From the IMG/VR virus record IMGVR_UViG_3300008110_010375: a stretch of DNA of 64,000 bases; one strand, 5' to 3'. This document shows positions 37,439 to 54,027 of this stretch, piece by piece. The stretch is from a virus. The position numbers and the translations under genes were made by a program. The notes beneath the pieces are model-generated. The model worked only from the letters and a program-made list of their open reading frames with translations, searched no databases and was not told the DNA's origin. How positions within the stretch are numbered: position 1 is the first letter of the stretch; the number at the start of each line of letters is the position of its first letter.

Positions 37439-37974
37439 ACATATTCTACATCAGTGAAGACCCGTTCGAAGCCGCCCAGATGATGGTCGACAAGCACGTG
37501 GTCAAGATGATCCTCGAGTCGGCGCAGCTTCTATCGACCGCGCACCGTCTCATCGACGGCGAGGAATTCGTCGGTCAGTCTCTCTCCGGTCGCAAAGCAA
37601 AGCGCTGGCGTCTTCCAGACTTTCGCGACGCGGTCTTATATCAAGCCACGCACATCAACCACCCGTCGGCGGTCTGGTGTCGCGAGTCCCGCGAGAACTA
37701 CAACTGGCTGTTCAGGCACTTCGCCGCGCTGATGGCCGAGTATACCCATCGCTACGGTAAGCACCACAAGTGCGAGGGTCAGCTCGCTGAGTACTTGATG
37801 CAGTCACCAAACAACATCGCCAAGGGCGGCTTGACCAAGATGCCTTCGGCCATGGCCGACGAGTACAAGATCAGCGACGACCCGTTGACAAACTACAGAA
37901 ACTATTATAAGATCGGTAAATCTAGAATGCATAGATGGACCAAACGCCAACCGCCGGAATGGATAGCAGCATGA
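37435..37974 (+). CDS. pyrimidine-dimer DNA glycosylase/endonuclease V-like protein
   Basis: MNIF...DKHVVKMILESAQLLSTAH, H.NHPSA.W, EYT.RYGK.H. Confidence 0.75.
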   Translation: MNIFYISEDPFEAAQMMVDKHVVKMILESAQLLSTAHRLIDGEEFVGQSLSGRKAKRWRLPDFRDAVLYQATHINHPSAVWCRESRENYNWLFRHFAALMAEYTHRYGKHHKCEGQLAEYLMQSPNNIAKGGLTKMPSAMADEYKISDDPLTNYRNYYKIGKSRMHRWTKRQPPEWIAA

Positions 37975-38372
37975 GCAAAGACTGGGTACACGACATCGCG
38001 ATGATGCATGAGCACTACAAAGTGCATCCCGTCATCGAGAACATGGATAAAGAAACCCTTGAGAAGTTTCTCAAGTTCCGCATCAACTTCCTCAAAGAAG
38101 AACTCGACGAGCTTCGCGACGCTGAGAACGCCGAAGACGTCGTCGACGCGCTCATCGACCTCTGCGTCGTGGCGATCGGTACGCTTGACACCTTCAAGGT
38201 GGACTCACACAAAGCTTGGGACGCGGTTCTGGAAGCCAACATGAACAAGAAGACCGGTGTCAAGGCGAGCCGCCCGAACCCGCTTGGACTTCCAGACCTG
38301 ATCAAGCCGGAAGGCTGGGAGCCCCCAAGCCATTCAAACAATTACGGTTTTTTAAGTAAAATCTTTGGTTGA
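37971..38372 (+). CDS. MazG-like all-alpha NTP pyrophosphohydrolase (candidate dCTPase/dUTPase)
   Basis: EELDE...EDVVDALIDL, V..ANM.K, KPEGW..P. Confidence 0.75.
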   Translation: MSKDWVHDIAMMHEHYKVHPVIENMDKETLEKFLKFRINFLKEELDELRDAENAEDVVDALIDLCVVAIGTLDTFKVDSHKAWDAVLEANMNKKTGVKASRPNPLGLPDLIKPEGWEPPSHSNNYGFLSKIFG

Positions 38373-38397
38373 CATTTTAATCTACTCATTGTATACT
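38369..38397 (+). promoter_or_regulatory. sigma70-like promoter of the DNA-modification island
   Basis: TTGACA-17-TATACT. Confidence 0.8.
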
Positions 38398-38438
38398 ATA
38401 AAAGTATCCTGCGCTGAGCGCTTAATTCGGAGAAAAAT

Positions 38439-39023
38439 ATGAGTGACCTTGCTACCTACGCCGACAAGATTTTGTCGGCTGAACCTGTAAAAGTCCAAAG
38501 AACAGAAGAGCTAAATAAAAAGTTCACGGATATAGCGAATGAGATTTATCGCTGTCCTTTTCGCAATAAGAATCGTCGTGAATTTAAGACTGTGTTTGAG
38601 TCCGTCGAAAAGATGGTCATTGAACACGCACTATCAAAGCTCACTGGACTTGCGATGAACTGGCAATCTTTTGATCACACCAATCGTGATACATACGCTT
38701 GGGACGTGATTGATCTAGAAACTAAAAAAACTTTTGAGTGCAAGCGCTGGGCCGAGAAGTGGTTTTCATTCAACAATAAAGATATCTCAACGTTCACAAA
38801 AAACATCGACATCATCGACTACTTCGTGTCGGGCAAAGTGTTTCGCACGCCGTCTTTCTATACGGTGGCTTTTCACTTGGTAGCCGACGCGAAGTCGTTC
38901 GAGAAGTATGTTCGCCCATCACAGTACACAACAAAACTGTACTACGATCACCACACGGCTATGAAGAAAGGTGACGCTTTCTTTCGTGACCACGTCTATT
39001 TTGAGAATGGAACAGCAGCATGA
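38439..39023 (+). CDS. denB: endonuclease IV (DenB)-like dC-specific nuclease
   Basis: DTYAWDV...FECK and KYVRPSQY resemble T4 DenB YTYAWDV...VEVK and KVVRKSNY (from memory). Confidence 0.65.
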   Translation: MSDLATYADKILSAEPVKVQRTEELNKKFTDIANEIYRCPFRNKNRREFKTVFESVEKMVIEHALSKLTGLAMNWQSFDHTNRDTYAWDVIDLETKKTFECKRWAEKWFSFNNKDISTFTKNIDIIDYFVSGKVFRTPSFYTVAFHLVADAKSFEKYVRPSQYTTKLYYDHHTAMKKGDAFFRDHVYFENGTAA

Positions 39024-39385
39024 CAGACAAAGAATCCGTGAAAGTGCTTCAAGAGTGCATCGACCTGCAGCTCAAGAAGTCTCAAGACTATCAGAACCCG
39101 AACTCAAACGTGGTTCAAGCCATGCACTACCGCCGCGGCATCGATACGATCCACGACACGCTTCAAGGCAAGCTCTATCGCGCCCAATCGCTTCTTGAGT
39201 CCGGCCGCGCCGACCAAGCGAACTTCGAGTCGCTTGAGGACACGTACAAAGATCTCATCAACTACGCTTCCTTCGCAGTGTCTTGGCTTCGCGGCAAGAT
39301 CGAAGGCCAAGATCCCGAGCGCGACATCTTCAACAAGAAGCGCGAGCAGTCAAAGTACTATTACGAGAAAGATCGCAACAAATGA
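39020..39385 (+). CDS. nucleotide-modification-associated protein (DUF1599/Nmad1-like)
   Basis: KKSQDY, K..R, ESLEDT..DLINYA. Confidence 0.7.
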   Translation: MTDKESVKVLQECIDLQLKKSQDYQNPNSNVVQAMHYRRGIDTIHDTLQGKLYRAQSLLESGRADQANFESLEDTYKDLINYASFAVSWLRGKIEGQDPERDIFNKKREQSKYYYEKDRNK

Positions 39386-40029
39386 TGACGATCGACGAGA
39401 TACGACTTCGCTTCAAGTACGACTACGACCTCGAAGTCTTTGTGACCGATAAGTCAGGCGTCAGGATGCTCGAGATCATGAACGCCAGCTTCATCGCCGA
39501 TCGACCGACGATCTTCGGCACGATCAACGAAGACTACGTCAAGCGCGAGCTTGAGTGGTACGAGTCTATGTCGCGCAACGTCAACGATATTCCCGGCGGG
39601 CCTCCGGCGATCTGGCAGCAGGTCGCGAGCGAGAGCGGTGAGATCAACTCCAACTACGGTTGGTGCATCTGGTCGGACGCGAACTACGCACAGTACGACA
39701 ACGTAGTCGCCGAGCTTCAAAAGAACCCAGAGTCTCGACGCGCGACCATGATCTACACACGCCCAAGTATGTGGCTCGACTACAATCGCGACGGCATGAG
39801 CGACTTCATGTGCACCAACACCGTGCAGTATATGATCCGACACGATCGCCTGCACGCTCTCGTGTACATGCGTTCGAACGACGTCGTGTTCGGCTACAAG
39901 AACGATCGCGCTTGGCAGAAGCACGTGCTCGATCGCCTCTGCGATGAGCTCGGCTACGAGCCCGGAAACATCTACTGGAACGTCGCCTCGCTCCATGTGT
40001 ATGAGAGGCACATCGACCTTGTCCGGTAA
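39382..40029 (+). CDS. 42: dCMP hydroxymethyltransferase gp42
   Basis: RELEWY, GEINSNYGW, SDFMCTNTVQY, MRSNDVVFGYKND (Asp at the dCMP-specificity site), SLHVY; close match to T4 gp42 as remembered. Confidence 0.93.
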   Translation: MMTIDEIRLRFKYDYDLEVFVTDKSGVRMLEIMNASFIADRPTIFGTINEDYVKRELEWYESMSRNVNDIPGGPPAIWQQVASESGEINSNYGWCIWSDANYAQYDNVVAELQKNPESRRATMIYTRPSMWLDYNRDGMSDFMCTNTVQYMIRHDRLHALVYMRSNDVVFGYKNDRAWQKHVLDRLCDELGYEPGNIYWNVASLHVYERHIDLVR

Positions 40030-40519
40030 GTGGATCGATAAGTACTTCAAGCTCGCTGAGCAGGTGTCGAGTTGGTCGAAAGACCCAAGCACCAAGGTCG
40101 GTGCGATCGCCGTCGGCGCGAAGGGTCAGATCCTGTCGCAGGGATACAACGGGTTCCCACGCGGGATCGAGGACAGTGAAGCTCGGCTGAGCGATCGCGG
40201 ACAGAAGTATAAGTTCGTGGTCCACGCCGAGCAGAACTGCATCTACAACGCGACGCTGAACGGGGTCAGCCTGTCAGACGCCGATATGTACATCTGGGGA
40301 CTTCCTCTCTGCTCGGAGTGCGCGAAGGGTGTCATCCAAGTGGGCGTCAAGCGCGTCTTCATGTGCTACCCTTCTGAGATCCCAAGTAAATGGAGCGACT
40401 CGTTCGAGCTGACGGCCGCTATGTTGAATGAAGCTAAAGTTGAGTGGAAGTGCTATGAATCGAGTCTTAGTAGTAGGTATGAACCCGTCGAACACTCCGG
40501 GAACGACGACGGGCGTTGA
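40019..40519 (+). CDS. cd: dCMP deaminase
   Basis: SKDPSTKVG, GYNGFPRG, HAEQN, CSEC; TTG start inferred. Confidence 0.9.
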   Translation: MSGKWIDKYFKLAEQVSSWSKDPSTKVGAIAVGAKGQILSQGYNGFPRGIEDSEARLSDRGQKYKFVVHAEQNCIYNATLNGVSLSDADMYIWGLPLCSECAKGVIQVGVKRVFMCYPSEIPSKWSDSFELTAAMLNEAKVEWKCYESSLSSRYEPVEHSGNDDGR

Positions 40520-40832
40520 GCGCAAGAACTCAACGTTCGATCGCCTGCACAAGTGGTTCGATCACGCCGGCGTTCACTACTTCTCTTTCGTAAATACAAC
40601 CGACAAGCGCGGTGAGATCAAGCCGGTCGACATCGACTGGGATACACTCAAGCTGTGTCTCAAAGGTCACACCAAGATTATTGCACTCGGCGGCTTCGCC
40701 TCGACGGCGCTTGGCAGGCTAAATATAGAACACTACACTTTGCCGCACCCGTCACCTCGCAACAGGAAGTTCAACGACGCGGCCTATGAACCAATGGTCA
40801 TGGAAGACTTGAGAAGGTACGTTACAAAATGA
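40455..40832 (+). CDS. small uracil-DNA-glycosylase-fold protein
   Basis: VVGMNPS, IIALG, LPHPSPRN. Confidence 0.7.
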   Translation: MNRVLVVGMNPSNTPGTTTGVERKNSTFDRLHKWFDHAGVHYFSFVNTTDKRGEIKPVDIDWDTLKLCLKGHTKIIALGGFASTALGRLNIEHYTLPHPSPRNRKFNDAAYEPMVMEDLRRYVTK

Positions 40833-42061
40833 AAGTTGCGATTCTCATGGGACGCGGCATCGAGGGATGCGGCGTCTCTAAGTTTACTATCGAGATGGCG
40901 AAGTACCTGCAGAAGCACGGTCACGAATACGTCGTCATCGCGGCCAAGGACAAGACTTGGTCGCGAAAGAACTCTCATGAGATGCCCAACCTCATGTACA
41001 TCAAGTTCGCCGAGGACGGCGCGGTCGATCACGTTGCCGACGCCTGCAACACCTGCGACTTGGTCGTCATCAACTCGCTGCCTCCGTTCGCCTACAAGAA
41101 GAACTTGAACTACGACGTCAAGGTCGCTGAGAACTTCCGCAAGATACTGCAGAAGATCCAAGCGCCTACGGTGTTGTTTCAACACGACCATAATAAGATC
41201 TCAATCACGCGCAACGACTGCCTTAAGGAATCTATCGAGAAGTCGAAGGCTCTGTTCGCCCACTCACCGACCGGCGACTTCGCGACGGTAGTCGAGTCGC
41301 TGTCTGAAGTCGGCGGGGTGTTAGGGTTCTTTGGCGCTGAGCCTGTGAAGCGTGAGATCTTAAACTTCCAGCCCGGGATGTATTTCGACGAGGTGCGCAA
41401 GAAGTACTGGAAACCCATCGAGCAGACGGACAAGATGTGTCACCGTTGGATCGGCCGCATGGCGCTGTGGAAGGGTCCGCGACTGATGTTCGACTTCCAT
41501 GAGAAGCACCTGCGCAAGATGAACGCGCTGACGATCCTCGAGGGCATGGAGAAGTCGCTGGCTTTCGTCGAGATCAAGCAGAAGTACTCATTCCAGTACT
41601 TCAACACCGAGAACCCCGACAACGTCGACTTTACTAAATACTACGGCGACACCGCGACAGTGTTCTCATTCTACAAGAACCATGAGCTGCTCGAGCGCCT
41701 CTCAAAGTCGGGATACGGGTACCAGCTCTCGCTTCTGGACTCAAGGTACATCAAGCGATCGATCGAGTACACACACTGCGAGGTCGCCGCCGCCGGAGCG
41801 ATTCCAGTCTTTCATCGCGGATACGGCGAAGCCTGCACGCATCGAGTCCTCGGCAAGCCCTTGACAGAATGCGCCGACAGTGGTACAATCTGGCTATCAA
41901 ACGACAACATGGAGCAGTGTGCTGATTTGATCGCGACGCTCAACACAGACGACGGCCTTCGCGACGAGTATCGCGAGAAGGCCTATGAGTTCTATAAATC
42001 ACACCAAGACGCAGACGCTGTCTTCGACGAAGCGTTCAAACTGATCGGAGAGGCGAAATGA
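40829..42061 (+). CDS. agt: DNA alpha-glucosyltransferase
   Basis: MGRGIEGCGVSKF, HDH, IGR...WKG, RSIEYTH.E..A.G.IPVF match T4 alpha-gt as remembered. Confidence 0.9.
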   Translation: MKVAILMGRGIEGCGVSKFTIEMAKYLQKHGHEYVVIAAKDKTWSRKNSHEMPNLMYIKFAEDGAVDHVADACNTCDLVVINSLPPFAYKKNLNYDVKVAENFRKILQKIQAPTVLFQHDHNKISITRNDCLKESIEKSKALFAHSPTGDFATVVESLSEVGGVLGFFGAEPVKREILNFQPGMYFDEVRKKYWKPIEQTDKMCHRWIGRMALWKGPRLMFDFHEKHLRKMNALTILEGMEKSLAFVEIKQKYSFQYFNTENPDNVDFTKYYGDTATVFSFYKNHELLERLSKSGYGYQLSLLDSRYIKRSIEYTHCEVAAAGAIPVFHRGYGEACTHRVLGKPLTECADSGTIWLSNDNMEQCADLIATLNTDDGLRDEYREKAYEFYKSHQDADAVFDEAFKLIGEAK

Positions 42062-43254
42062 AGCACGCAACAATCGTACCGCTCATAGGCGGTGAGACCC
42101 TAGGCTCTGAAAAAGCTTTCGGAAGCCGCCCAGTCTGGCTCGCTTCGTATGAAGCGTTTCAGGCAAACGACAGCCACCTGCTTAACTACTACAACAACGA
42201 GGTTCCGTATCACCTGATCGACAAGGGAAGCTTCCCAACCGAGAAGGTCGACGTCATCAGCACAGTGTGTCCATGCGCCGGCCTGTCGCAGCTGTCGCAC
42301 GGCTTCGGCGACCACAACCCGAACAACAAGTGGATGATCGAGACGGCGAAGTACGTGCTCGGCGAGCTTAAGCCCGAGGTGTTCTGGGGTGAGAACGCCC
42401 CAGGATTCGCAGGCAAGATCGGTGAGAACGTTCGCAACCAAGTGCGCCAGATCGGTCTCGACAACGGATACAGCATGACGGTCTACCGCACGCGCTCGCT
42501 CCTTCACGGGGTGGCGCAGGTGCGCGAGCGAGCTTTCTACTTCTTCTGGCGCGGCGACAAGGTTCCCGTGTTGAACTTCTACCAGCGCGAGCGTCCGACG
42601 ATTGAGGACACGATACTCAGCGTCACGTCTAACTTCCAGATGGATCCGATCAATCCAAAGACTCCGTCGAAGGACGATCCCTACTACCGCTTCATCCTTG
42701 AGCACATACACGGAGGCGTGAGTCATCGCGACTTCTGTAAGAACGTCGAGCCCGCCAAAGCGCGCGGACAGGACGTCTTATCATATATAGAACGCGTGGG
42801 CGTCGACTACGACGAGGTCGCCGAGTGGATGGGAGCCAACGGCTATCCCAAAGAAGTTGAGAAGTGCAAGGGTCGCAAGGCCAAGATTGCGGCCGGCGGA
42901 AACATCATGCGCCGCGGAACCATAGTCCCACGAGACTACATCGGCGCGTTCGTCGGTCACTACCCAATGATGCTGACGCATCCCGTCGAAGACCGCTACA
43001 TAACATACAGGGAAGCCATGACGATCATGGGACTCCCGCAAGACTTTGAGCTGCTCAACCCAAAGAAGAGCGCGAACCACATCTGTCAAAATGTACCAGT
43101 GAGCACCGCACATGACATGGCAACCGAAGTCCGTGAATATCTTGAAGGAAAGCGAGAACTCGTATCGTCTCGTCTCGCTTTCCAATACAACTTCTCTAGA
43201 ACAAATGAGTTTACTGATGAACGAACAACCTCTGCGCTCGATGCCTTCTTCTGA
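42058..43254 (+). CDS. divergent DNA cytosine-C5 methyltransferase-fold protein
   Basis: PC motif IV (CPCAGLS), ENAPG (VI), Q.RER (VIII), R.IT.REA (IX); motif I is IVPLIGG and motif X is CQNV. Confidence 0.75.
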   Translation: MKHATIVPLIGGETLGSEKAFGSRPVWLASYEAFQANDSHLLNYYNNEVPYHLIDKGSFPTEKVDVISTVCPCAGLSQLSHGFGDHNPNNKWMIETAKYVLGELKPEVFWGENAPGFAGKIGENVRNQVRQIGLDNGYSMTVYRTRSLLHGVAQVRERAFYFFWRGDKVPVLNFYQRERPTIEDTILSVTSNFQMDPINPKTPSKDDPYYRFILEHIHGGVSHRDFCKNVEPAKARGQDVLSYIERVGVDYDEVAEWMGANGYPKEVEKCKGRKAKIAAGGNIMRRGTIVPRDYIGAFVGHYPMMLTHPVEDRYITYREAMTIMGLPQDFELLNPKKSANHICQNVPVSTAHDMATEVREYLEGKRELVSSRLAFQYNFSRTNEFTDERTTSALDAFF

Positions 43255-43576
43255 GCTTAAGCACCTTGGGCTGGAAGATGTCGTGGTGAAAAAAAAGGAC
43301 TACAAGTACAACGAAGACCTGTACATTTCAGAAATCGCGGATTATATTGGTAAGACATACGGTGAGCACTACTCGCGGAACAAGTTCCAAGCGACTGAGT
43401 TCATCATAGATTCCGGTCACGGCACCGGCTTCTGCGTCGGCAACGTCCTAAAGTACGCGCAGCGCTATGGGCGCAAGGGCTCACCGGACGACTGGAGGAA
43501 AGACCTCATGAAGGTGATCCACTACGCGATCATCCAGCTTCACGTTCACGATACAACCTACGAGGACGACAAGTGA
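43241..43576 (+). CDS. DUF3310-like nucleotide-modification-associated protein
   Basis: HY...Q..EFI, GFC.GN.LKY..RYG.KG, DL.K..HY; start uncertain. Confidence 0.7.
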   Translation: MPSSELKHLGLEDVVVKKKDYKYNEDLYISEIADYIGKTYGEHYSRNKFQATEFIIDSGHGTGFCVGNVLKYAQRYGRKGSPDDWRKDLMKVIHYAIIQLHVHDTTYEDDK

Positions 43577-43761
43577 ACAAGTTTCTACAATATGTAAAGC
43601 ATTCAAACATACACGTGTCGCTTAGCTTGAATCCGTTCAAGTGGCGCGTTATTATTGATTGTTCTAGACGCAGCGATATGGATCCTGGGCTGTTGCTAGA
43701 TTTTCTAATGATTTTAGGTCCACTAAAGATTGCAATGATCATCGATGACGGGAGTTGGTAA
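43573..43761 (+). CDS. hypothetical protein
   Basis: short ORF coupled to its neighbours. Confidence 0.5.
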   Translation: MNKFLQYVKHSNIHVSLSLNPFKWRVIIDCSRRSDMDPGLLLDFLMILGPLKIAMIIDDGSW

Positions 43762-43763
43762 CG

Positions 43764-44630
43764 ATGGAAATCCAGATTAAAGTTGAAGAGCTGCAGAAGA
43801 AGAAACTCTTCGTGGCTACACCTATGTACGGCGGACAGTGTAACGGCATGTACGCCCGCTCGATGTGTGACCTCACTGCCATGTGCTTGAAGTACGGCAT
43901 CGAGATGCGCTCATACTTCTTGTTCAATGAGTCGCTCATCACTCGAGCCAGAAACTATTGTGTTGACGAATTCCTGCGCTCGGGTTATACTCACCTTATG
44001 TTCGTCGACTCGGACATCGGATTCAATCCCCAAGACGTGCTCGCTCTTCTCGCTCTCCAGACCGACGAGTCTCCATACGACATCATCGGCGGTGCGTACC
44101 CGAAGAAGTGCATCACTTGGGAAAAGATCAAGATGGCCGTCGATAAGGGAGTCGCGGATCAGAACCCAGCGCTTCTTGAAGACTTCGTCGGCGACTTCGT
44201 CTTCAACCCAGTGATGGAGAAGGGCGAAGCTTCCAAGTCGATCAAGCTCGACGAGCCGGCGGAAGTGCTTGAGATCGGTACTGGCTTCATGATGGTTCGC
44301 CGCGCGACCTTCGAGGAGTACGTCAAGAAGTACCCAAACATCATGTACAAGCCCGACCACGTCCGCACCGCTGAGTTCGACGGCACGCGCCGCATCGGCA
44401 TGTACTTCCAAGCCGAGGTCGACCCTGAGTCCGAGCGCTACTTGTCGGAAGACTACCTCTTCTGTCAGAACTCACGCAAGGCCGGAATGAAGGTTTGGCT
44501 CTGCCCATGGATGCACCTGCAGCACGCAGGCTTCTACACCTTCGGCGGCAAGCTCGCGGCTTTGGCATCTATCGGTGCCTCCGCGACGGCAGACCCCGCA
44601 CAGATCGCCGCAACAAAAGCAAAGAAGTGA
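43764..44630 (+). CDS. GT-A fold glycosyltransferase-like protein
   Basis: ATPMYGG, ESLITRARN, FVDSD (DxD), GTGFM, LSEDY.FC. Confidence 0.75.
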   Translation: MEIQIKVEELQKKKLFVATPMYGGQCNGMYARSMCDLTAMCLKYGIEMRSYFLFNESLITRARNYCVDEFLRSGYTHLMFVDSDIGFNPQDVLALLALQTDESPYDIIGGAYPKKCITWEKIKMAVDKGVADQNPALLEDFVGDFVFNPVMEKGEASKSIKLDEPAEVLEIGTGFMMVRRATFEEYVKKYPNIMYKPDHVRTAEFDGTRRIGMYFQAEVDPESERYLSEDYLFCQNSRKAGMKVWLCPWMHLQHAGFYTFGGKLAALASIGASATADPAQIAATKAKK

Positions 44631-47065: not shown

Positions 47066-48139
47066 ATGCTGAAGGTGCATCAGGAGTGGGATCCTCTTAA
47101 AGTATGTGTGGTAGGTAAGAACTATCCGCCCGAGTTCTACTCGTTCATGAAGAACGCAAAGATGCGCGATCTCTTTGAGAAGATCGCGCGCGAGACTGAA
47201 GAAGACTACCAATCGCTCATCAAGATCTTAAAGTCGTTCAACGTCGAGGTGCTTCGTCCCGACGTACCGGACGTCGTCCCGCAGGAGTACATCGATCAGA
47301 ACCTACCGATCCCAGCGCCGGTGAGCTCTATCCCGCGCGACCAGATGATCATGATCGGTGAGACGTTCTTTCTCTTCCCGTACTTCAGGGTGAACCAGAA
47401 AGTAAACTGGCGATACGAAGACCAGCGCCAGTTTAAGAACTTCGATGTATGCTGGCAGGGAATCCTTGACTACGTCGCTTCCAAGGGAAACAAAGTCGTC
47501 AACAAGCAGGATGACGAGGACTTAGCGTGGATCAAGGTCAACGGCATCTATAGGATAGGCAAGGACCTGTTCTTTGGATCGAAGGGTGAAATGTCGGACT
47601 GGAGGGTGCTCGACGCGATCGACATAATGAAGAACACATATCTCCAAGACTATACGACGCATGCAGTTACAACAGGCGGACACATCGATGGTGTATTTAG
47701 TCCTCTCAACCCAGGACTGATATTCAGCGCATACGACGCGGAGACATACGAACACACGTTCCCCGACTGGGAGGTGGTGTACTTTGAGCAGAACCGGATG
47801 AACGCCCTTGGCGAGTGGATGTATCTAAAGGAGAAGAACAACGGTAAGTGGTTCATTCCCGGTGTCGCCGACGACGATGAGATAATAGAGTACGTTGAGC
47901 ACTGGCTTCAAGACTGGCTGGGATACGTCGAGGAGACGATCTTTGACGTGAACGTCTTAATGATCGATCCAAAGAACGTCGTGGTTTCATCCTACAACGA
48001 GAAAGCTTTCAAAGCCCTTGAAAGACATGGGATCACGCCCCACATATCCCCTATGAGACACCGGTTCTTCTGGGACGGGGGAGCGCACTGTATAACCGCT
48101 GAGCTCCATCGCGAGGGCGAGAGGAAGACTTTCTTCTGA
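47066..48139 (+). CDS. amidinotransferase (pentein) family protein
   Basis: EWDPLK...VG, PRD, GHIDG, DGGAHC. Confidence 0.85.
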   Translation: MLKVHQEWDPLKVCVVGKNYPPEFYSFMKNAKMRDLFEKIARETEEDYQSLIKILKSFNVEVLRPDVPDVVPQEYIDQNLPIPAPVSSIPRDQMIMIGETFFLFPYFRVNQKVNWRYEDQRQFKNFDVCWQGILDYVASKGNKVVNKQDDEDLAWIKVNGIYRIGKDLFFGSKGEMSDWRVLDAIDIMKNTYLQDYTTHAVTTGGHIDGVFSPLNPGLIFSAYDAETYEHTFPDWEVVYFEQNRMNALGEWMYLKEKNNGKWFIPGVADDDEIIEYVEHWLQDWLGYVEETIFDVNVLMIDPKNVVVSSYNEKAFKALERHGITPHISPMRHRFFWDGGAHCITAELHREGERKTFF

Positions 48140-48148
48140 TCTTTTCTA

Positions 48149-48188
48149 TTGACAATTCTATGTAAATAGTGTAGGATCTAGATAATGG
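48149..48188 (+). promoter_or_regulatory. early promoter copy 2
   Basis: TTGACA-17-TAGGAT-CTAGATAATGG. Confidence 0.85.
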
Positions 48189-48201
48189 ATTGGAGAACGA
48201 C

Positions 48202-48492
48202 ATGATCAAGAATGCGCTCGTGGCTGTCGCGTTACTGGCCGGAACCGCGTCAGCCCAAGCCGACGGGTACTTCCCTAGGCATGGACACCATCACCAGCAC
48301 TTTCGCCACAACAACGGGGGTGGAGACGCCGGTGCCGCCCTCATAGGAGGCCTGATCGGAGGCATGATCTTGAACCAGATGATGCAGCCCCCTCGTCCCC
48401 ACTACTACCAGCCTATGTGCCAGACGGTCTTCTTGGGACGGGTCTGGAACGGGTACACTTGGGTCGAGCAGTACCAGCGGATATGTGACTGA
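48202..48492 (+). CDS. exported His-rich glycine-zipper protein
   Basis: signal peptide ending ASAQA, HGHHHQH, GAALIGGLIGG. Confidence 0.7.
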   Translation: MIKNALVAVALLAGTASAQADGYFPRHGHHHQHFRHNNGGGDAGAALIGGLIGGMILNQMMQPPRPHYYQPMCQTVFLGRVWNGYTWVEQYQRICD

Positions 48493-48500
48493 AAAAACCT

Positions 48501-48573
48501 AATCTTTTCAACCACTTAGAAAAACTGAATCTTTTCAATGGCTTAGGAACCTCCCTCCTAAGCCATTGTTTTT
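48501..48573. repeat. direct and inverted repeats of AATCTTTTCAAnnnCTTAG; 13-bp hairpin, possible terminator and IHF-like sites
   Basis: copies at 48501-48519 and 48528-48546, inverted partial copy at 48556-48568, another inverted copy at 29534-29552. Confidence 0.7.
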
Positions 48574-48611
48574 ATTACATAATTTTTTTTCTTATTCCTA
48601 TCACTTTTTTA

Positions 48612-48651
48612 TTGACATTTCTGTAGAACTTTGATAAGATCTAGATAATGG
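48612..48651 (+). promoter_or_regulatory. early promoter copy 3
   Basis: TTGACA-17-TAAGAT-CTAGATAATGG. Confidence 0.85.
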
Positions 48652-48875
48652 CAAAAGGGAATAGAGACATGGACATAGCACAAGCCTCTCAGATCATAGA
48701 CAAAGTTCGCGCCGAGAACGGCTTCGGTCTCCTTGAGATGTTGGAGATCATGACCGACGAGTATCATTCGGGTGGTCTCGGATACTTCCGTGAAACATAC
48801 ACTCACGAAGAACGTACGGCCTATCTCATTCTTATGAACGGCTTTCGTGAATTCTTTGGTGAAAATAACGGTTGA
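48648..48875 (+). CDS. hypothetical early protein
   Basis: ORF starts at the promoter-motif ATG (alternative start 48669). Confidence 0.6.
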   Translation: MAKGNRDMDIAQASQIIDKVRAENGFGLLEMLEIMTDEYHSGGLGYFRETYTHEERTAYLILMNGFREFFGENNG

Positions 48876-48911
48876 CATTCTTATCAAAATAGTATAAGAT
48901 CTAGATAATGG
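48872..48911 (+). promoter_or_regulatory. early promoter copy 4
   Basis: TTGACA-17-TAAGAT-CTAGATAATGG. Confidence 0.85.
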
Positions 48912-48933
48912 CAATTGAAAAGGAACCTAGACT

Positions 48934-49206
48934 ATGAAGAAAGACTTCGCCTCTGCGATCTCGTACATCCTCACTTCAGCTTCAAACGACGAGTTGAACT
49001 CGATCTATGAAGCCATTGTCAATCGTCGTCAGTCACTGTCGCGCACCGCCCGTGTCAAGTTCATGTCGGGCGACAAAGTGAAGTTCTCAGCGCGCGGTGT
49101 CGACTACTCGGGCGTCATCAAAGACGTCAAGATCAAGAAAGCTTCGGTCAAGATGACGAACGGTCAAACGTACTTGGTCCCCCTCAACATGTTGGAGGCA
49201 GCATGA
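48934..49206 (+). CDS. hypothetical early protein, possible SH3/KOW-like C-terminus
   Basis: F..GDKVKF...G.I..VK.KKA.V. Confidence 0.65.
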   Translation: MKKDFASAISYILTSASNDELNSIYEAIVNRRQSLSRTARVKFMSGDKVKFSARGVDYSGVIKDVKIKKASVKMTNGQTYLVPLNMLEAA

Positions 49207-49394
49207 AGTACTACGTCCTCACCTTCCACGCGGTCAAAAACGATGGATCATACGGACCCATGTACGGCAATCCAATGATCTTTGTCACCCGCGAAGACGC
49301 GATCGAGTATGGTCGTCATCGAGTAGACTATTCAAGAACCGACTTCAAAGTAAATGAAACTATCGTCACCAAACACGTAGTAGGAACAAAATAA
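49203..49394 (+). CDS. hypothetical protein
   Basis: GGAGG RBS; ATGA overlap with the upstream gene. Confidence 0.6.
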   Translation: MKYYVLTFHAVKNDGSYGPMYGNPMIFVTREDAIEYGRHRVDYSRTDFKVNETIVTKHVVGTK

Positions 49395-50272
49395 TGGCAC
49401 ACTTAGTAGAAACGATGGCATACGCAGGCGAGACACCATGGCACGGCTTAGGCGTCCCAGTACACAACGACCTCACTCCGGCCCAGATGCTTGAGAAAGC
49501 TGGACTCGATTGGACCGTCGAGAAGGTTCCAACGTTCTGTGAGTTCAAGGACGAGCTCATCCCAACGGACGACTACGCTTTGGTTCGCTCAAGCGACAGC
49601 AAGGTGTTGACGACGGTCTCGGGCGACTGGGAACCAATTCAGAACCACGAAGCTTTCGAGTTCTTCAACGACTTCGTCATGGCCGGCGACATGGAGATGC
49701 ACACAGCGGGCTCACTCGACGGCGGTCGAAGCGTCTGGGCTCTCGCTAAGATCAAGGAGTCTTGTGTCGACATTAGGTTCACAGGCATTCGAGTGGTGTG
49801 CAACAACACGCTCACAGTCGCTCTTAACGGCACCACCGACATGATGGTACGCCTGAACCACCGCAACAAGTTCGACGCCGAGTCGGTCAAGCACACGATG
49901 GGAATGGCCAGCAAACGGATGGGCACCTACGTAGATGTGGCTAAGTACCTCACGACCAAGCGCATCACCGACGACACGGTTAAGAACTACTTCCGGACCG
50001 TTTTCCCATCGATGGTCAAGGACGACACCGACTACCTCGATCGCCCGCTCTCGCGTCCGGCGTCGATGGCGCTCGAGGTTCTCGAAACCCAACCGGGGGC
50101 CGAGTACGGTACCGGAAGTTGGTGGCAGGCGTTCAACGCGGTAACATATACCACTGACCACCTGCTCGGACACTCGGCAGACTCACGGCTTAAGTCGGCT
50201 TGGTACGGACAGAATCGCCAGCGCAAGATCAAGGCGCTTGAAACAGCAGTGGAATTCGCGGACGCGGCTTAA
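49394..50272 (+). CDS. DUF932 (TIGR03299-like) phage/plasmid protein, probable internal in-frame deletion
   Basis: PWHGLG, AGLDW.V, TAGSL.GG..VW.LA, IRVVC.NTL, W.AFNAVT. Confidence 0.85.
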   Translation: MAHLVETMAYAGETPWHGLGVPVHNDLTPAQMLEKAGLDWTVEKVPTFCEFKDELIPTDDYALVRSSDSKVLTTVSGDWEPIQNHEAFEFFNDFVMAGDMEMHTAGSLDGGRSVWALAKIKESCVDIRFTGIRVVCNNTLTVALNGTTDMMVRLNHRNKFDAESVKHTMGMASKRMGTYVDVAKYLTTKRITDDTVKNYFRTVFPSMVKDDTDYLDRPLSRPASMALEVLETQPGAEYGTGSWWQAFNAVTYTTDHLLGHSADSRLKSAWYGQNRQRKIKALETAVEFADAA

Positions 50273-50280
50273 GCCGCGTC
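50261..50280. repeat. perfect 20-bp palindrome over the DUF932 stop codon
   Basis: GACGCGGCTTAAGCCGCGTC. Confidence 0.75.
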
Positions 50281-50287
50281 TCCCTCG

Positions 50288-50295
50288 TATAAATA
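50288..50295 (+). promoter_or_regulatory. T4-type late promoter
   Basis: TATAAATA. Confidence 0.65.
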
Positions 50296-50312
50296 GGAAC
50301 ATGGAGTGAACG

Positions 50313-50549
50313 ATGCCTAAAGTTACAGTAGAACTTGAATATGAACAGATCGACGCGATCACGCTCGGTGAACTCAAGTCTTCCTACGAGCAGCTCGTCA
50401 AAGACTGGGAAAACAACGTTCGAGTCTATGACGATCCCGACGATCACTGGAATCTGATGGTCGGCTTCGAGAAAGTGATCCAGTACTTCATGGTGCACAG
50501 TGAGTTCAACGACTACATGGCATCCTTCCCCCTCCGCAAAAGGGATTAA
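50313..50549 (+). CDS. hypothetical protein
   Basis: ORF with GGAG RBS. Confidence 0.6.
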   Translation: MPKVTVELEYEQIDAITLGELKSSYEQLVKDWENNVRVYDDPDDHWNLMVGFEKVIQYFMVHSEFNDYMASFPLRKRD

Positions 50550-51212
50550 ATGAAGCCAGTCGTTTCGGTCTACCACAATCACCCCTATTGTTCGACCGAC
50601 TCGGCTTTGGGCGTCGCCAACGCCCTGCAGGAAGAATTCGACGTCAAGTTCTTTACGAACGACGACTTCGACTTAGCTCTCGAGCGATCGGCCATGATCG
50701 TGTTCCCCGGAGGGTTGGGCGACGCCGATCAGTTCGATAAGATACTCGGCGACAAGAAAGAAAAAGTCAAAAGCTACGTTGCGAACGGTGGTAAGTACTT
50801 AGGCATCTGCATGGGTGCATACTGGGCAGACCACTGGTACTTCGACCTCCTACAAGATCTGGAGTGCAATCGCTTCATAAAGCAGACTAACAGCGAAACT
50901 ACCAGATCATACGGTACGGTCGTCGACGTGATTTGGTATGGTGTGAGTGAACCGTTGAAGATGTACTTCTACGACGGCTGTGTGATCGAGGGGACCGGCA
51001 GGTGTGAGATCGTGGCGAAGTACGCCTCAAATCACGGCTGGGCAGCGGTCATACAGGGAAACGTTGGTGTGATAGGAATGCATCCAGAATCGACCAAGCA
51101 CTGGTTCACTTACAAGACCCATAAGTACATGAAGGCCCTGTGGCATGAGGGACGGCAACACAACCTGCTCGCGGATGTGGTCGCCCGAATGATCAACGAC
51201 AGGGACTGCTAG
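50550..51212 (+). CDS. class I glutamine-amidotransferase-like protein (BPL_N type)
   Basis: VFPGG, GG.YLGICMGAY nucleophile elbow, HPE. Confidence 0.8.
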   Translation: MKPVVSVYHNHPYCSTDSALGVANALQEEFDVKFFTNDDFDLALERSAMIVFPGGLGDADQFDKILGDKKEKVKSYVANGGKYLGICMGAYWADHWYFDLLQDLECNRFIKQTNSETTRSYGTVVDVIWYGVSEPLKMYFYDGCVIEGTGRCEIVAKYASNHGWAAVIQGNVGVIGMHPESTKHWFTYKTHKYMKALWHEGRQHNLLADVVARMINDRDC

Positions 51213-51286
51213 GACGGGTAGCTTAAAGGTGAAGCCGGCCGCTCATAACGGTCTAAGTGTAGGTTCGAGTCCTACCCTGTCCACCA
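51212..51286 (+). tRNA. tRNA with CAT anticodon, probably tRNA-Ile2 (lysidine type); elongator Met not excluded
   Basis: GGACGGG/CCTGTCC acceptor stem, CTCATAA loop, GGTTCGAGTCC, encoded CCA. Confidence 0.88.
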
Positions 51287-51294
51287 TTTTTTTA

Positions 51295-51323
51295 TTGACA
51301 AACGTCGCACACTACGGTATAAT
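51295..51323 (+). promoter_or_regulatory. consensus sigma70 promoter
   Basis: TTGACA-17-TATAAT. Confidence 0.88.
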
Positions 51324-51355
51324 GGAATATATAGTCTACAACATGGAGATACCCT

Positions 51356-51553
51356 ATGTCTATCTACCCAGCATCCTACAAGTACGTCGTGGAGTTCGAG
51401 AAGTTCTTCACCAAGGGTAACCTGAAGTCCCTAACCATCAAGGATCGGTTGCACTTCGCCACCGAGCGGGACGCGAAGGACTGGGTCGACGCCGTCGGCA
51501 AGCTCAACAGGGACGGCAAGTTTTTCAACTTCAAAGTGAGGAGTGCAGCATGA
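51356..51553 (+). CDS. hypothetical protein
   Basis: GGAG RBS after the promoter. Confidence 0.6.
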   Translation: MSIYPASYKYVVEFEKFFTKGNLKSLTIKDRLHFATERDAKDWVDAVGKLNRDGKFFNFKVRSAA

Positions 51554-51735
51554 AGTTTCACGAGTACTTAACCTACGCCATCATCGCGTTCATCGTCGTA
51601 GATCTCATCTACAGGCTCTTCAGCCAAGACTGGGGCAACATCGGCCTGTCGATCACAGCCCTCATCGGTTGGTTCTACGTCCAAGGCTACGAGCGTCAGG
51701 AGCGCCTCGAGCGCGAAGCGAAGTTCACGCCTTAA
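51550..51735 (+). CDS. small membrane protein
   Basis: two hydrophobic segments; ATGA overlap. Confidence 0.6.
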   Translation: MKFHEYLTYAIIAFIVVDLIYRLFSQDWGNIGLSITALIGWFYVQGYERQERLEREAKFTP

Positions 51736-52778
51736 TGTATAAGTACGAAGACGTCAGGGTGGTTCACCTTGAGATAACCGGCAAGTGTCAAGCCGGCTGC
51801 TCGATGTGTTCAAGAAACGATGAGACCGACAGCGACATCCTTGTGGCTCCAACCACTGCTGAGCTGAGCTACGAAGACTGTGTCAAGATCTTTCCAAAGG
51901 ACCTGATCAAGCAGCTCAGCGGCATGTATATGTGCGGCAACTACGGCGATCCCATCATCGCCAAGGATACGCTTGAGGTGTTCGAGTACTTTAGGTATGC
52001 TAATCGCGACATGGAGCTGAATATGTACACCAACGGTGGGGCACGATCCCCGACGTGGTGGAAGGACTTGGCCGGAATACTTCAGCACGGAAAAGGAAGG
52101 GTCGTCTTCGCGGTCGATGGTCTTGAGGACACAAATCACATCTACAGGGAGAACGTTCGCTGGAACAACGTCATGTCGTCGGCGAAGGCCTTCATCGCCG
52201 CCGGCGGCGAAGCGCGATGGCACTACTTGGTTTTCAAACACAACGAGCATCAAGTTGAAGAAGCGAGGGAGCTGGCGAAGAAGATGGGATTCGCCTCCTT
52301 CGTCGTCAAGCGAACGAGCAGGTGGCAGGGTCAGACCACGTATAAGCACCTGTCTCAACCTGAGAAGAAGGAATACGTTCACCAAGTCAACAACATCAAG
52401 GCGCAGATCGTTAAGATCTACGGATCATTTGATAACTTTGTGAATAAAACGAGTATAAGTTGTAGGGTGCAGAAGGAGAGGGGCATCTACATAACGGCCG
52501 AGGGGCTCATGGTTCCCTGCTGCTGGCTCGGTGGATCCGCCATCTACGACGCCGATAAGCGCTCATACAAAGAGGGTGAACTGTTTCAACACATGGGCGG
52601 CGATAAAAGCAACATCAACGCTAAGGTTCACGGGATAAAGAAGATCTTAGAGGACGGCTTCTTCGATAAGATAGAGAAGTCGTGGAGCTCAGGCTCCACG
52701 ACCAATGGTAAGCTTAAGACCTGCGCGAAGGTGTGTTCCGTGGATCACGACAACTTCGGCGAGCAATTCATAAAATGA
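51735..52778 (+). CDS. radical SAM protein with C-terminal SPASM/Twitch-like domain
   Basis: CQAGCSMC, CGNYGDP, TNGG, C...IYITAEG..VPCC...CAKVC. Confidence 0.9.
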   Translation: MYKYEDVRVVHLEITGKCQAGCSMCSRNDETDSDILVAPTTAELSYEDCVKIFPKDLIKQLSGMYMCGNYGDPIIAKDTLEVFEYFRYANRDMELNMYTNGGARSPTWWKDLAGILQHGKGRVVFAVDGLEDTNHIYRENVRWNNVMSSAKAFIAAGGEARWHYLVFKHNEHQVEEARELAKKMGFASFVVKRTSRWQGQTTYKHLSQPEKKEYVHQVNNIKAQIVKIYGSFDNFVNKTSISCRVQKERGIYITAEGLMVPCCWLGGSAIYDADKRSYKEGELFQHMGGDKSNINAKVHGIKKILEDGFFDKIEKSWSSGSTTNGKLKTCAKVCSVDHDNFGEQFIK

Positions 52779-53108
52779 TCACTGTGAGTTGTTCGACGCG
52801 CTAACGTATGCGTTCGCGCCAAAGAACGTAGCGACGACACCAGCTTGGGCTATGTAGAACATCTGCAGGAGCGATCCAAGCGCGGCAACCTTCTCTATAG
52901 ACACCAACGGTGAGAACAGTATGCCGGTGAAGATCACCATGCTGCCCATAGCGACCCACGCCATCTGGCGAAGCTGGTCTTCCTTCTTGTCCTTATTCTC
53001 AAACTCAATCATGTGTTCCATCTTCTTCATCTCGTCGTCGGAAACCACTCCGTCGCCGTCCGCGTCGTACTGGTTGTACTTTGAGTTCTTCTCAAGCGAT
53101 TTAGCCAT
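52779..53108 (-). CDS. membrane protein with EF-hand-like loop (holin-like candidate)
   Basis: DADGDGVVSDDE followed by two hydrophobic segments. Confidence 0.6.
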   Translation of the reverse strand: MAKSLEKNSKYNQYDADGDGVVSDDEMKKMEHMIEFENKDKKEDQLRQMAWVAMGSMVIFTGILFSPLVSIEKVAALGSLLQMFYIAQAGVVATFFGANAYVSASNNSQ

Positions 53109-53112
53109 CAGT

Positions 53113-53397
53113 TCATCCCTTTGATTTTATCATTGACGTTAAGTTGTTGATCAACTCACCGCCGAAGCCTATCGATCCTGTGATCACTCCGGCGAACGCT
53201 AAAGCTATGACGATCATGGTCAAACATATCAGCCAGACGCTTGAGGTGCCAAGGTTGTCCTCGATCTCAATGATCTGATTCTTCAATATCTCGAGCTGCT
53301 CCTTAGGGTGTCCGTCGGCTTTATCGTAGTCCTGCAGCCATGGGTGCGCGGCGACTTCGTCGGACAACTTATCTGGAGACTTCCTTTTCTTCTTCAT
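53113..53397 (-). CDS. hypothetical membrane protein
   Basis: single hydrophobic segment. Confidence 0.55.
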   Translation of the reverse strand: MKKKRKSPDKLSDEVAAHPWLQDYDKADGHPKEQLEILKNQIIEIEDNLGTSSVWLICLTMIVIALAFAGVITGSIGFGGELINNLTSMIKSKG

Positions 53398-53828
53398 AGG
53401 AACTTAAACGCTAAGAATAAGCCGCTGCCGATGAAGACGATGAGAAAGACGATGGCGACGATGATCCAAACGGTTTCCCAGAACTCTTCCTTCCTGCGAG
53501 CCTCTTCCCTGCGCAGGCGCTCAGCTTCCTTCGCCGCTTCAACCTTCGCCTTGTAGTAGGCTTCACGTTGAGCCTTCGACATCTTCATTAGCGCGGCTTT
53601 TTCTTGCTCAGCTACGATCTCACGCATCGCCTGCTCGCGAAGCGCGTTGTTCATACGAACTACCTGATTGTTGATCTCGGTGACTTTGTTGCGAGCTGCG
53701 ACCTTGGAGTTGTTCTCAGCCTTGATTCGCTTTGAGTCGCGAACCGTATCGACGATTCCAAAGATTGAGTTGGTTAGACCCTTACCGATTGAGTTGCCGA
53801 ACTTCGCGGCTGACTTTGGATCCATCAT
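53394..53828 (-). CDS. coiled-coil protein with C-terminal membrane anchor
   Basis: charged helix then hydrophobic tail. Confidence 0.6.
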   Translation of the reverse strand: MMDPKSAAKFGNSIGKGLTNSIFGIVDTVRDSKRIKAENNSKVAARNKVTEINNQVVRMNNALREQAMREIVAEQEKAALMKMSKAQREAYYKAKVEAAKEAERLRREEARRKEEFWETVWIIVAIVFLIVFIGSGLFLAFKFL

Positions 53829-54006
53829 GATTCCGTTCCTTACTTTTATTCCAAATCATTCTGTATCTCTCTCAAGTCGCAGCCGAAGCTTCTCGGCTAT
53901 CTGTGATTTTTTTGTTAAAAAAACAAGCGCTCCAGACTTACTGTAGACGCTGAAGTAAACCTGCCCTGATGTGAATCTTCTTCTTACTATTAAATACATC
54001 GCATAG

Positions 54007-54014
54007 TATTTATA
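54007..54014 (-). promoter_or_regulatory. T4-type late promoter, reverse strand
   Basis: TATTTATA on the + strand, upstream of the three membrane genes. Confidence 0.55.
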
Positions 54015-54027
54015 AAGGTGAAACATA

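Follow-up and report, generated by a model that had tools for sequence, protein, structure and literature searches.

The window analysed here is a stretch of 64,000 nucleotides from IMG/VR virus record IMGVR_UViG_3300008110_010375, the DNA of a T4-like phage with about 52% G+C. Between 34.3 and 47 kb all of its genes lie on the plus strand, in the order gp46, a 213-residue open reading frame (ORF), peptide deformylase (def), an 88-residue ORF, a DenV-like gene, the gene set that is the subject of this article, gp45, gp44, gp62 and RegA. A preliminary description had singled out here a contiguous, mostly coupled set of ten genes for a nucleoside triphosphate (NTP) pyrophosphatase, a DenB-like nuclease, an Nmad1-like protein, the dCMP hydroxymethylase gp42, dCMP deaminase, a protein with the uracil-DNA glycosylase (UDG) fold, an alpha-glucosyltransferase (AGT), a protein with the C5-cytosine methyltransferase (C5-MTase) fold, a DUF3310-like protein and a GT-A glycosyltransferase. 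All ten are present, on the plus strand and where they had been placed. The part from 37971 to 43254 is, judged by homology, probably a self-contained operon that puts alpha-glucosyl-5-hydroxymethylcytosine in place of cytosine. The comparative result is the larger one: a portable operon for glucosylated 5-hydroxymethylcytosine (hmC) lies in a hotspot at which whole modification systems are swapped.

The backbone proteins of the phage are nearer to those of Stenotrophomonas phage DLP_6 than to those of T-even contigs, with identities of 52% vs. 35% for gp46 and 64% vs. 34% for gp44. By these identities the phage is outside the T-even group, with a backbone of the DLP_6/Cr30 type rather than that of Tevenvirinae, and the earlier view that it is a non-enterobacterial phage holds. 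A comparison of the island DNA with 50,697 phage records gave one match of 80 bp only, and since the match extends over just 80 bp there is no close cultured relative. Most gene junctions in the island are overlaps of 4–14 bases, some of them of the ATGA/GTGA form. The sole real intergenic gap, 38373–38438, is the site of a sigma-70-like promoter sequence, TTGACA-17-TATACT (38369–38397, plus strand), which scores 11/12 in a consensus scan and stands upstream of the DenB-like gene. The same scan, which is a pattern match only, found 10 promoter-like sites in the region, compared with 5.6 ± 2.0 in shuffled sequences.

The dCMP hydroxymethylase of the T4 gp42 type, or 5hmdCMP synthase, is encoded at 39382–40029 on the plus strand. 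The protein matches PDB entries 1B49/1B5E with E 2.6e-89 and is about 62% identical to T4 gp42. It has become apparent that many “gp42” homologues in Straboviridae actually make 5-hydroxy-dCMP (5hodCMP), and residues that distinguish the two types have been published (PMC13326640, 2026). In Escherichia coli ThyA numbering, cytosine specificity comes from N177D, L143D/E accompanies non-methyl products and D169N is found in the 5-hydroxy enzymes (PMC13326640). The window protein keeps the catalytic Cys (T4 C148, in FMCTN) and has Asp at the positions of ThyA N177 (T4 D179, in KND-RAW), ThyA L143 (T4 D145, in S-D-F-M-C, three residues ahead of the Cys) and ThyA D169 (T4 D171, in MRSND). The positions of Cys148, D171 and D179 are invariant in 39/39 distinct homologues from the clade. 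Because all of the published specificity residues fit the hmC type, and none the 5-hydroxycytosine type, assignment to the hmC-type enzymes is well supported by these criteria, and the activity itself is predicted from it. The claim that the phage replaces C with hmC is accordingly sound at the level of sequence.

The AGT gene (40829–42061, plus strand) encodes a protein that covers 353 of the 355 positions of the PF11440 profile (E 2.9e-75). Its residues 1–406 align over the full length of the T4 AGT structure 1XV5 (E 6e-90), and its identity to the AGTs of T-even phages is 39–42%. It is well supported by these similarities that the window would encode a complete-looking hmC route with alpha-glucosylation. 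A near-complete relative, G001 (IMGVR_UViG_3300033076_001354; 157,623 bp, 98% complete by CheckV), has AGT and C5-MTase proteins that are 93% identical to those of the window. In G001 gp42 is the sole gene of the thymidylate synthase family (ThyX was not searched), and a dCMP deaminase is present. No beta-glucosyltransferase (beta-GT) was found in G001 by a search in which the T4 positive control gave E 1e-99. TET/JBP oxygenases (PF12851) were absent from G001 and from the cultured Pseudoalteromonas phage vB_Psh_XG4 (E 9e-18 for the control locus, L158), and a tblastn search of the window with the L158 TET as query gave no match. A TET route to hmC was rejected on these grounds.

Searches of IMG/VR with the C5-MTase-like protein yielded more than 200 stretches at 60–95% identity, compared with only 11 close ones when the AGT was used. 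In about 95 loci the gene order is mazG-(DenB-like gene or other ORFs)-nmad1-gp42-cd-(UDG)-[slot]-C5-MTase-(DUF3310 or Rv2179c-like exonuclease)-GT-A-gp45, where cd is the dCMP deaminase gene. This synteny survey, which had been proposed as a check, indicates that the arrangement is not due to chance, because the same order recurs in so many loci. The slot is variable. In the window it is filled by AGT alone; elsewhere it contains a GT4-like protein, a 370-residue protein with UDP-galactopyranose mutase and in some cases an epimerase, a beta-GT-like protein with an epimerase and UDP-glucose dehydrogenase, or a four-gene set that includes a protein resembling pyridoxal phosphate enzymes. Since the slot holds different sugar cassettes, the clade appears to diversify what hangs on hmC, and the window has the plainest version.

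Two further variants were observed in these loci. In L072:2900-8000, L093 and L094 (e.g., L094:2735-4831 and L072:5118-6398) the slot encodes a protein similar to myo-inositol-1-phosphate synthase, another similar to nucleoside 2-deoxyribosyltransferase (E 2e-35), and a 426-residue protein that weakly resembles the helical domain of 5-hmdU DNA kinase (E 5e-5). Phosphorylation of hmC in DNA, in preparation for further substitution, is a possible function of this set. In L034:2394-3026 and about 30 other loci the DUF3310 position is occupied by an Rv2179c-like 3′-5′ exonuclease (E 5e-16), often followed by a protein with the N-terminal domain of dATP/dGTP diphosphohydrolase.

The preliminary description had extended the island to 44630. 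The gene content stood up to 43254, and the three genes beyond it belong to the phage backbone. The first encodes a DUF3310 protein of about 111 residues (probable start 43241, end 43576, plus strand; PF11753, E 2.9e-9). This domain is common to the window protein and T7 gp1.7, where it occupies residues 122–184 (BLASTP E 2e-6 over 33 residues), and the window protein is without the N-terminal part, about 120 residues, of the T7 gp1.7 nucleotide kinase. A role as the missing hm-dCMP kinase was considered unproven, as only the C-terminal domain of gp1.7 is common to the two and the gene is also found in phages without gp42. The second is a 62-residue ORF (43573–43761, plus strand) with no Pfam or PHROG match, which is conserved in close relatives and belongs to a cluster of 19 members. 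The third, next to gp45, encodes a probable GT-A glycosyltransferase of 288–291 residues (43764–44630, plus strand; phrog_1574, E 1.6e-65). Its identity is 70% to AAY80_034 of DLP_6, 55% to the protein of Caulobacter phage Cr30 and 49% to that of Sinorhizobium phage phiM12. The GT-A fold is probable: members of the family have sub-threshold matches to Anp1 (23/27) and Glyco_transf_21 (19/27), D82-x-D84 is invariant, and a neighbour in the Atlas is annotated as a nucleotide-diphospho-sugar transferase. Searches of the PDB gave no meaningful sequence match, even with the family profile.

In DLP_6, Cr30 and phiM12 the GT-A gene has gp46 (or def) on one side and gp45 on the other. No gp42 homologue was found in DLP_6, and in Cr30 and phiM12 nothing beyond weak, thymidylate-synthase-like matches was obtained (E 1e-4 to 1e-5, 24–29% identity). 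In the IMG/VR loci L109, L112, L143 and L181, which are without gp42, the order is gp46-def-DUF3310-GT-A-gp45. Because loci without gp42 carry both genes, DUF3310 and GT-A are taken as backbone, and by gene content the true island is 37971–43254, with DUF3310, the 62-residue ORF and GT-A excluded. For the same reason GT-A was rejected as the default candidate for a second hmC sugar transferase, and it is unlikely that it would add a second sugar to hmC.

GT-A also served as an anchor for a sample that is unbiased with respect to gp42 and the C5-MTase-like gene. It comprises 30 loci in which the upstream sequence extends over about 6 kb or more, and the counts ignore shared ancestry. Both genes were present in 10/30 loci, gp42 without the C5-MTase-like gene in 2/30, neither gene in 18/30, and the C5-MTase-like gene without gp42 in 0/30. 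At the same site, 10 of the 18 loci without gp42 have GTP cyclohydrolase I (FolE), some of them with a radical-SAM enzyme, four are of a TET type and four have neither. The TET-type loci encode a TET/JBP oxygenase, P-loop nucleotide kinase 3 and an amino acid:DNA transferase (ADDT, PF18724), and two of the four also match the glutamine amidotransferase and GNAT genes of L158. By analogy, this appears to be the gene set known from thymidine hypermodification, and the FolE/radical-SAM set suggests a 7-deazaguanine-type module. Read from gene order, the site between def/denV and DUF3310-GT-A-gp45 is a modification hotspot of a large uncultured clade, and the operon is one of its alleles.

Individual examples of the other modules can be given. 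In L158:2816-7874 (IMGVR_UViG_3300044627_000312), and also in L152, L163 and L164, there are genes for Tet_JBP (E 1e-14), glutamine amidotransferase, GNAT, PF18724 (E 3e-23) and P-loop nucleotide kinase 3; the L158 module is inserted in a T4-like backbone between denV/mazG and DUF3310-GT-A-gp45. GTP cyclohydrolase I (E 1e-33) and a radical-SAM enzyme are at the hotspot in L129:3581-9204 (IMGVR_UViG_3300005805_000049), and FolE homologues are also present in L114, L118, L132, L133, L149, L153, L167, L180 and L184. The window itself contains, downstream of regA (47066–55705 and 59198–59842), genes for proteins of 357 and 394 residues without Pfam matches, a BPL_N/GATase-like protein and a 411-residue radical-SAM protein, and a QueC-like PP-loop protein is encoded after the DNA polymerase. 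The orphan enzymes downstream of regA may form a second, unrelated biosynthetic set.

The island begins with a gene for a MazG-like all-alpha NTP pyrophosphatase (37971–38372, plus strand; PF01503, E 9e-7; phrog_671, E 1.6e-18), the ATG of which overlaps the stop codon of the denV-like gene. MazG is 58–100% identical across loci with gp42, and just 32–38% identical to the MazG of loci without it. It is presumed to act on dCTP (and dUTP) and to be the functional counterpart of T4 gp56. Homology to gp56 was tried and rejected, with a probability of 1.4% in profile comparison.

The next gene (38439–39023, plus strand) encodes a protein of 194 residues that belongs to a small metagenomic family. 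No Pfam or PHROG match was obtained at default thresholds and no tblastn match in the phage records; below the thresholds, the sole PHROG match was DenB-like (E 0.04), and BLASTP to DenB itself was as weak (E 0.04). A profile made from the 19 sequences of this family, A1, matched the single sequence of T4 DenB (endonuclease IV) with an hhalign probability of 90% and E 1.4e-6 over 107 columns. YAWDV occurs at the same position (85–91) in both proteins, followed by E-C-K in one and E-V-K in the other, and the E-x-K reads as a PD-(D/E)xK site. From these matches the protein is accepted as a probable remote DenB-like nuclease. The closest relatives of the window at this point, L003 (L003:2251-2979) and L005, have AGT and C5-MTase proteins 93–95% identical to those of the window, and in place of the DenB-like gene they carry two unrelated ORFs of 88 and 161 residues; the gene therefore appears to be a recently exchanged cassette inside the operon.

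A small helical protein of the Nmad1/DUF1599 family follows (39020–39385, plus strand; PF07659, E 4.9e-5, 24.0 bits vs. a cut-off of 25; phrog_1485, E 6.5e-14). Its gene is directly upstream of gp42 in most loci with gp42. A relationship to MazG or to T4 gp56 was rejected (hhalign probability ≤0.1%), comparison of its profile with the PDB gave chance matches only, and nothing specific on Nmad1/DUF1599 or on this clade was found in the literature.

In nearly all loci with gp42, gp42 is followed by the gene for dCMP deaminase, the analogue of T4 cd (ORF 39944–40519, probable start about 40001, plus strand; PF00383, E 1e-16; phrog_174, E 1e-37). About half of these loci also have a gene for a minimal protein of the UDG superfamily, in the window a 134-residue ORF (40428–40832, plus strand; protein about 125 residues). 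The Pfam match is at E 0.005 and there is no meaningful sequence match in the PDB; the assignment comes from AlphaFold and Foldseek. The model has a predicted local distance difference test (pLDDT) score of 84, and the top matches were UdgX, SMUG1, family-4 UDG and vaccinia D4, with template modelling (TM) scores of 0.55–0.67. UdgX, SMUG1 and family-4 UDG had E ≤ 1e-3, and rank 1 was an uncharacterised protein. Conserved in 22 homologues are G-[IMQ]-N-P-S (motif A, G-x-x-P-x), F-x-N, ALG and HPSP-x-NR (motif B). In the UDGs described in PMC11078745 the flipped base packs against an aromatic residue, and its uracil face is read by an Asn. Since F-x-N is invariant, as in uracil-recognising UDGs, the mini-UDG may be a glycosylase for uracil-type bases, U or 5-hydroxymethyluracil (hmU). 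These could arise from deamination, or the neighbouring deaminase could produce them from hm-dCMP.

The conserved 3′ end of the island (42058–43254, plus strand) encodes the C5-MTase-fold enzyme (PF00145, E 4e-19). Its AlphaFold model (pLDDT 84) has M.HaeIII, CmoX (PDB 8YF3) and M.HhaI as best fold matches. Motifs IV (CPCAGLS), VI (GENAP), VIII (Q-x-R-x-R), IX (RxIxYRE) and X (CQNVPV) are invariant in 55–59 homologues, and the enzyme most likely attacks C6 of DNA cytosines covalently. Motif I, the S-adenosylmethionine (SAM)-binding motif of C5-MTases, is here an invariant I-x-P-L-I-G-G, not F-x-G-x-G-G, with Leu for the first Gly and Val/Ile for the Phe. Position 32, after strand 2, would correspond to HhaI E40 and is E in 38, S in 14, K in 6 and T in 1 of 59 sequences; the Glu after strand 2 in HhaI and CmoX binds the ribose of SAM (PMC12783734). 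D55, after strand 3, would be at the adenine-binding position of HhaI D60 and is invariant. Both equivalences are drawn from predicted secondary structure, and the family profile aligns to solved MTases only from residue 59–63 or later. The protein is among the best conserved of the locus, with 61–95% identity and, in the 59 sequences, conservation of 98% or more at about 29% of positions. Conservation across the clade is also good between motifs VIII and IX, which points to a constant target among its members.

CmoX is a natural relative of the C5-MTases that uses carboxy-SAM (PMC12783734). Identification of the window protein as a CmoX was rejected; it has CPCAG instead of the SPPC motif, and Asn is kept at the position of HhaI N304 and CmoX R350. 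No CmoA or ligase homologue was found within 37971–43254, the part of the window that was searched. More distant homologues are known from cultured phages. Cyanophage S-TIM54 has one that is 32% identical, with the same variant of motif I (IPLvGG), and no gp42 was found there; plain cytosine is therefore favoured as the ancestral substrate. In S-TIM5-type cyanophages the homologue stands alone.

Phage vB_Psh_XG4 (PP712099.1, an unannotated record; L105:100-6580) has consecutive genes for an hmC-type gp42, a small ORF similar to haloacid dehalogenases (HAD), a 559-residue nucleotidyltransferase/kinase fusion, two glycosyltransferases and a C5-MTase-like protein. The last is 30% identical to that of the window, and the gp42 also has Asp at the position of ThyA D169. 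The 559-residue fusion resembles in architecture the AfhE of arabinosylating phages. This row of genes speaks for a functional tie of the C5-MTase-like protein to an hmC-sugar pathway. In the lineage of the window the C5-MTase-like gene was never seen without gp42, yet three loci with gp42 are without it, and we conclude that its role is accessory, with a benefit that is tied to the hmC pathway.

Taken together, the genes suggest the following route. MazG would remove dCTP and thereby supply dCMP, which the gp42 homologue would convert to 5hm-dCMP, while dCMP deaminase, like T4 cd, would balance the pools of dTTP and hm-dCTP. Kinases other than a T4 gp1 homologue would make hm-dCTP, the phage polymerase would incorporate it, and the AGT would then glucosylate hmC within the DNA. 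Among the accessory proteins, the DenB-like nuclease would attack cytosine-containing DNA, the mini-UDG would remove uracil-type bases arising from deamination, and the C5-MTase-like enzyme would act on DNA cytosines by covalent attack at C6. The purpose that we favour for the last, although we hold it weakly, is methylation of residual unmodified C, by which it would be shielded from nucleases of the phage itself or of the host.

This is the logic of the glucosyl-hmC system of T4: depletion of dCTP, hydroxymethylation of dCMP, post-replicative glucosylation and degradation of C-containing DNA. The enzymes are also alike, with a gp42 that has all the specificity residues (62% identity), a full-length AGT (39–42%), cd and a putative remote relative of DenB. 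In contrast to T4, the genes of the window are in one operon of about 5.3 kb. The T4 counterparts had been described as dispersed, which is mostly so, with the qualification that beta-gt and gene 42 are adjacent in T4. The backbone is of a different type, beta-GT and the gp1 kinase are missing and the pyrophosphatase is a MazG without detectable homology to gp56. Nmad1, the mini-UDG and the conserved C5-MTase-like enzyme are additions.

Other systems share some of these features. In hypermodification islands that combine C5-MTase, TET (5mYOX) and glycosyltransferases (Burke et al., 2021, PMC8256090; bioRxiv 10.1101/2023.12.21.572611), a C5-MTase is clustered with DNA glycosyltransferases and sugar-tailoring genes, and the product is glycosylated 5hmC. 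The hmC of the window would come instead from the pre-replicative gp42 route, and since there is no TET in G001 or XG4 the MTase cannot be the first step to hmC. The arabinosyl- and galactosyl-5-hydroxycytosine systems of RB69, DLP3 and RL38JI also have a thymidylate synthase homologue, sugar-nucleotide genes and glycosyltransferases in one cluster, with sugars that vary among relatives (PMC13326640); they differ from the window, where the synthase has the Asp of the hmC type at ThyA D169 and AGT is unaccompanied by sugar-activation genes. The CmoX/CmoA/CmoY system for 5-carboxymethylcytosine demonstrates that the C5-MTase fold can be re-tooled by phages for a non-methyl modification of cytosine (PMC12783734), with an SPPC motif and an Arg350 that the window protein does not share. 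Earlier mining had already noted clusters of thymidylate synthase homologues and glycosyltransferases near genes for dCMP deaminase, gp45/clamp and methyltransferases (bioRxiv 10.1101/2023.12.21.572611), and the present system is therefore classed as a variant, not a new kind.

Several points weigh against the glucosyl-hmC reading as set out above. Every enzymatic step is assigned by homology, the specificity of MazG for dCTP is a guess, made without detectable homology to gp56, and no dNMP kinase of the T4 gp1 type was found in the window or in G001. Full replacement of C would leave a methyltransferase without substrate, and the high conservation of the C5-MTase-like protein is a poor fit to a “mop-up” function. 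It deviates from SAM-dependent C5-MTases in motif I and at the residue after strand 2, and the three loci with gp42 that are without it indicate that it is not essential to the pathway.

A different proposal is that the C5-MTase-like, Nmad1, UDG-like and GT-A proteins act on hmC or glucosyl-hmC to form an undescribed cytosine adduct, for example by activation of C6 of hmC by the MTase fold and exchange or extension of the hydroxymethyl group without SAM. We regard it as unlikely. In its favour, the C5-MTase-like gene occurs in the lineage only with gp42 and always directly after the transferase cassette, XG4 included; about one-third of members have S, K or T in place of the acidic residue that binds ribose, and IxPLIGG is invariant; the N-terminal 58–62 residues or so align in profile searches with no solved MTase; and CmoX, with carboxy-SAM, is a precedent for a relative with another cofactor (PMC12783734). 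Yet the same family, with IPLvGG, is found in S-TIM54 where no gp42 was detected, the invariant D55 and motif X Asn are as in methyl-transferring enzymes, the residues diagnostic of CmoX are lacking, GT-A and DUF3310 are present in phages without gp42, the variable slot of the window holds AGT only, and some relatives with gp42 have no C5-MTase-like gene. The preliminary description had reasoned that genes in surplus of the T4 pathway imply further chemistry on hmC, such as a second sugar, and this could not be upheld. The deaminase and DenB are standard T4 functions and GT-A and DUF3310 are backbone, so that what the T4 paradigm leaves over is chiefly the C5-MTase-like protein and, less markedly, Nmad1 and the mini-UDG; a second sugar finds no transferase in the slot beside AGT, nor a beta-GT or TET in G001. 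This particular phage may have a new base, but there is no indication of one, and an additional minor base is possible. There is a small chance that the C5-MTase-fold enzyme is not a methylase, and that as a tailoring enzyme at the DNA level it attacks C6 of hmC or glycosyl-hmC, or uses a cofactor other than SAM, to add a further group. If so, the whole uncultured clade and XG4 would carry an undescribed cytosine derivative, with the invariant IxPLIGG loop and the variable ribose position as its signature.

The C5-MTase-like protein could, at the other extreme, be an ordinary sequence-specific anti-restriction methylase, or an enzyme for host DNA or tRNA, with an incidental position in the operon. 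All catalytic motifs of DNA C5-MTases are intact in it, orphan MTases are common in phages and the S-TIM5-type cyanophages have a lone homologue. A generic methylase should serve the TET- and deazaguanine-type sisters equally well, yet it is absent from 18/18 loci without gp42; its linkage to gp42 and transferases holds at 30% identity in XG4, and the conserved region between motifs VIII and IX argues for one target throughout. We find this explanation improbable. It is very improbable that the synthase is a flavin-dependent 5-hydroxy-dCMP synthase like those of RB69 and DLP3, which would lead to DNA with glycosylated 5-hydroxycytosine. Homologues long labelled gp42 do make 5hodCMP in many Straboviridae (PMC13326640), and some relatives of the window have genes for UDP-galactopyranose mutase and epimerase, as in the galactofuranosyl/arabinosyl systems. 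The 5-hydroxycytosine reading was rejected on the D169 diagnostic, which is Asp, not Asn, in 39/39 clade homologues and in XG4; the identity of about 62% to T4 gp42 and a partner that is a full-length homologue of T4 AGT, an enzyme acting on hmC, also speak against it.

The glucosyl-hmC reading means that the T4 strategy would be present, packed into one portable operon, in a branch of T4-like phages that is large, uncultured and non-enterobacterial. One hotspot there would accommodate at least three interchangeable modules, hmC with sugars, TET/kinase/amino-acid:DNA-transferase and the deazaguanine type, and the frame def ... DUF3310-GT-A-gp45 offers a synteny handle for harvesting modification pathways and sugar cassettes from metagenomes. 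These findings pose sharply the question of the role of a strongly conserved C5-methyltransferase-fold enzyme where C5 of cytosine is already occupied, and XG4, which is in culture and has genes arranged on the same logic, can serve at once as an experimental model for the chemistry.

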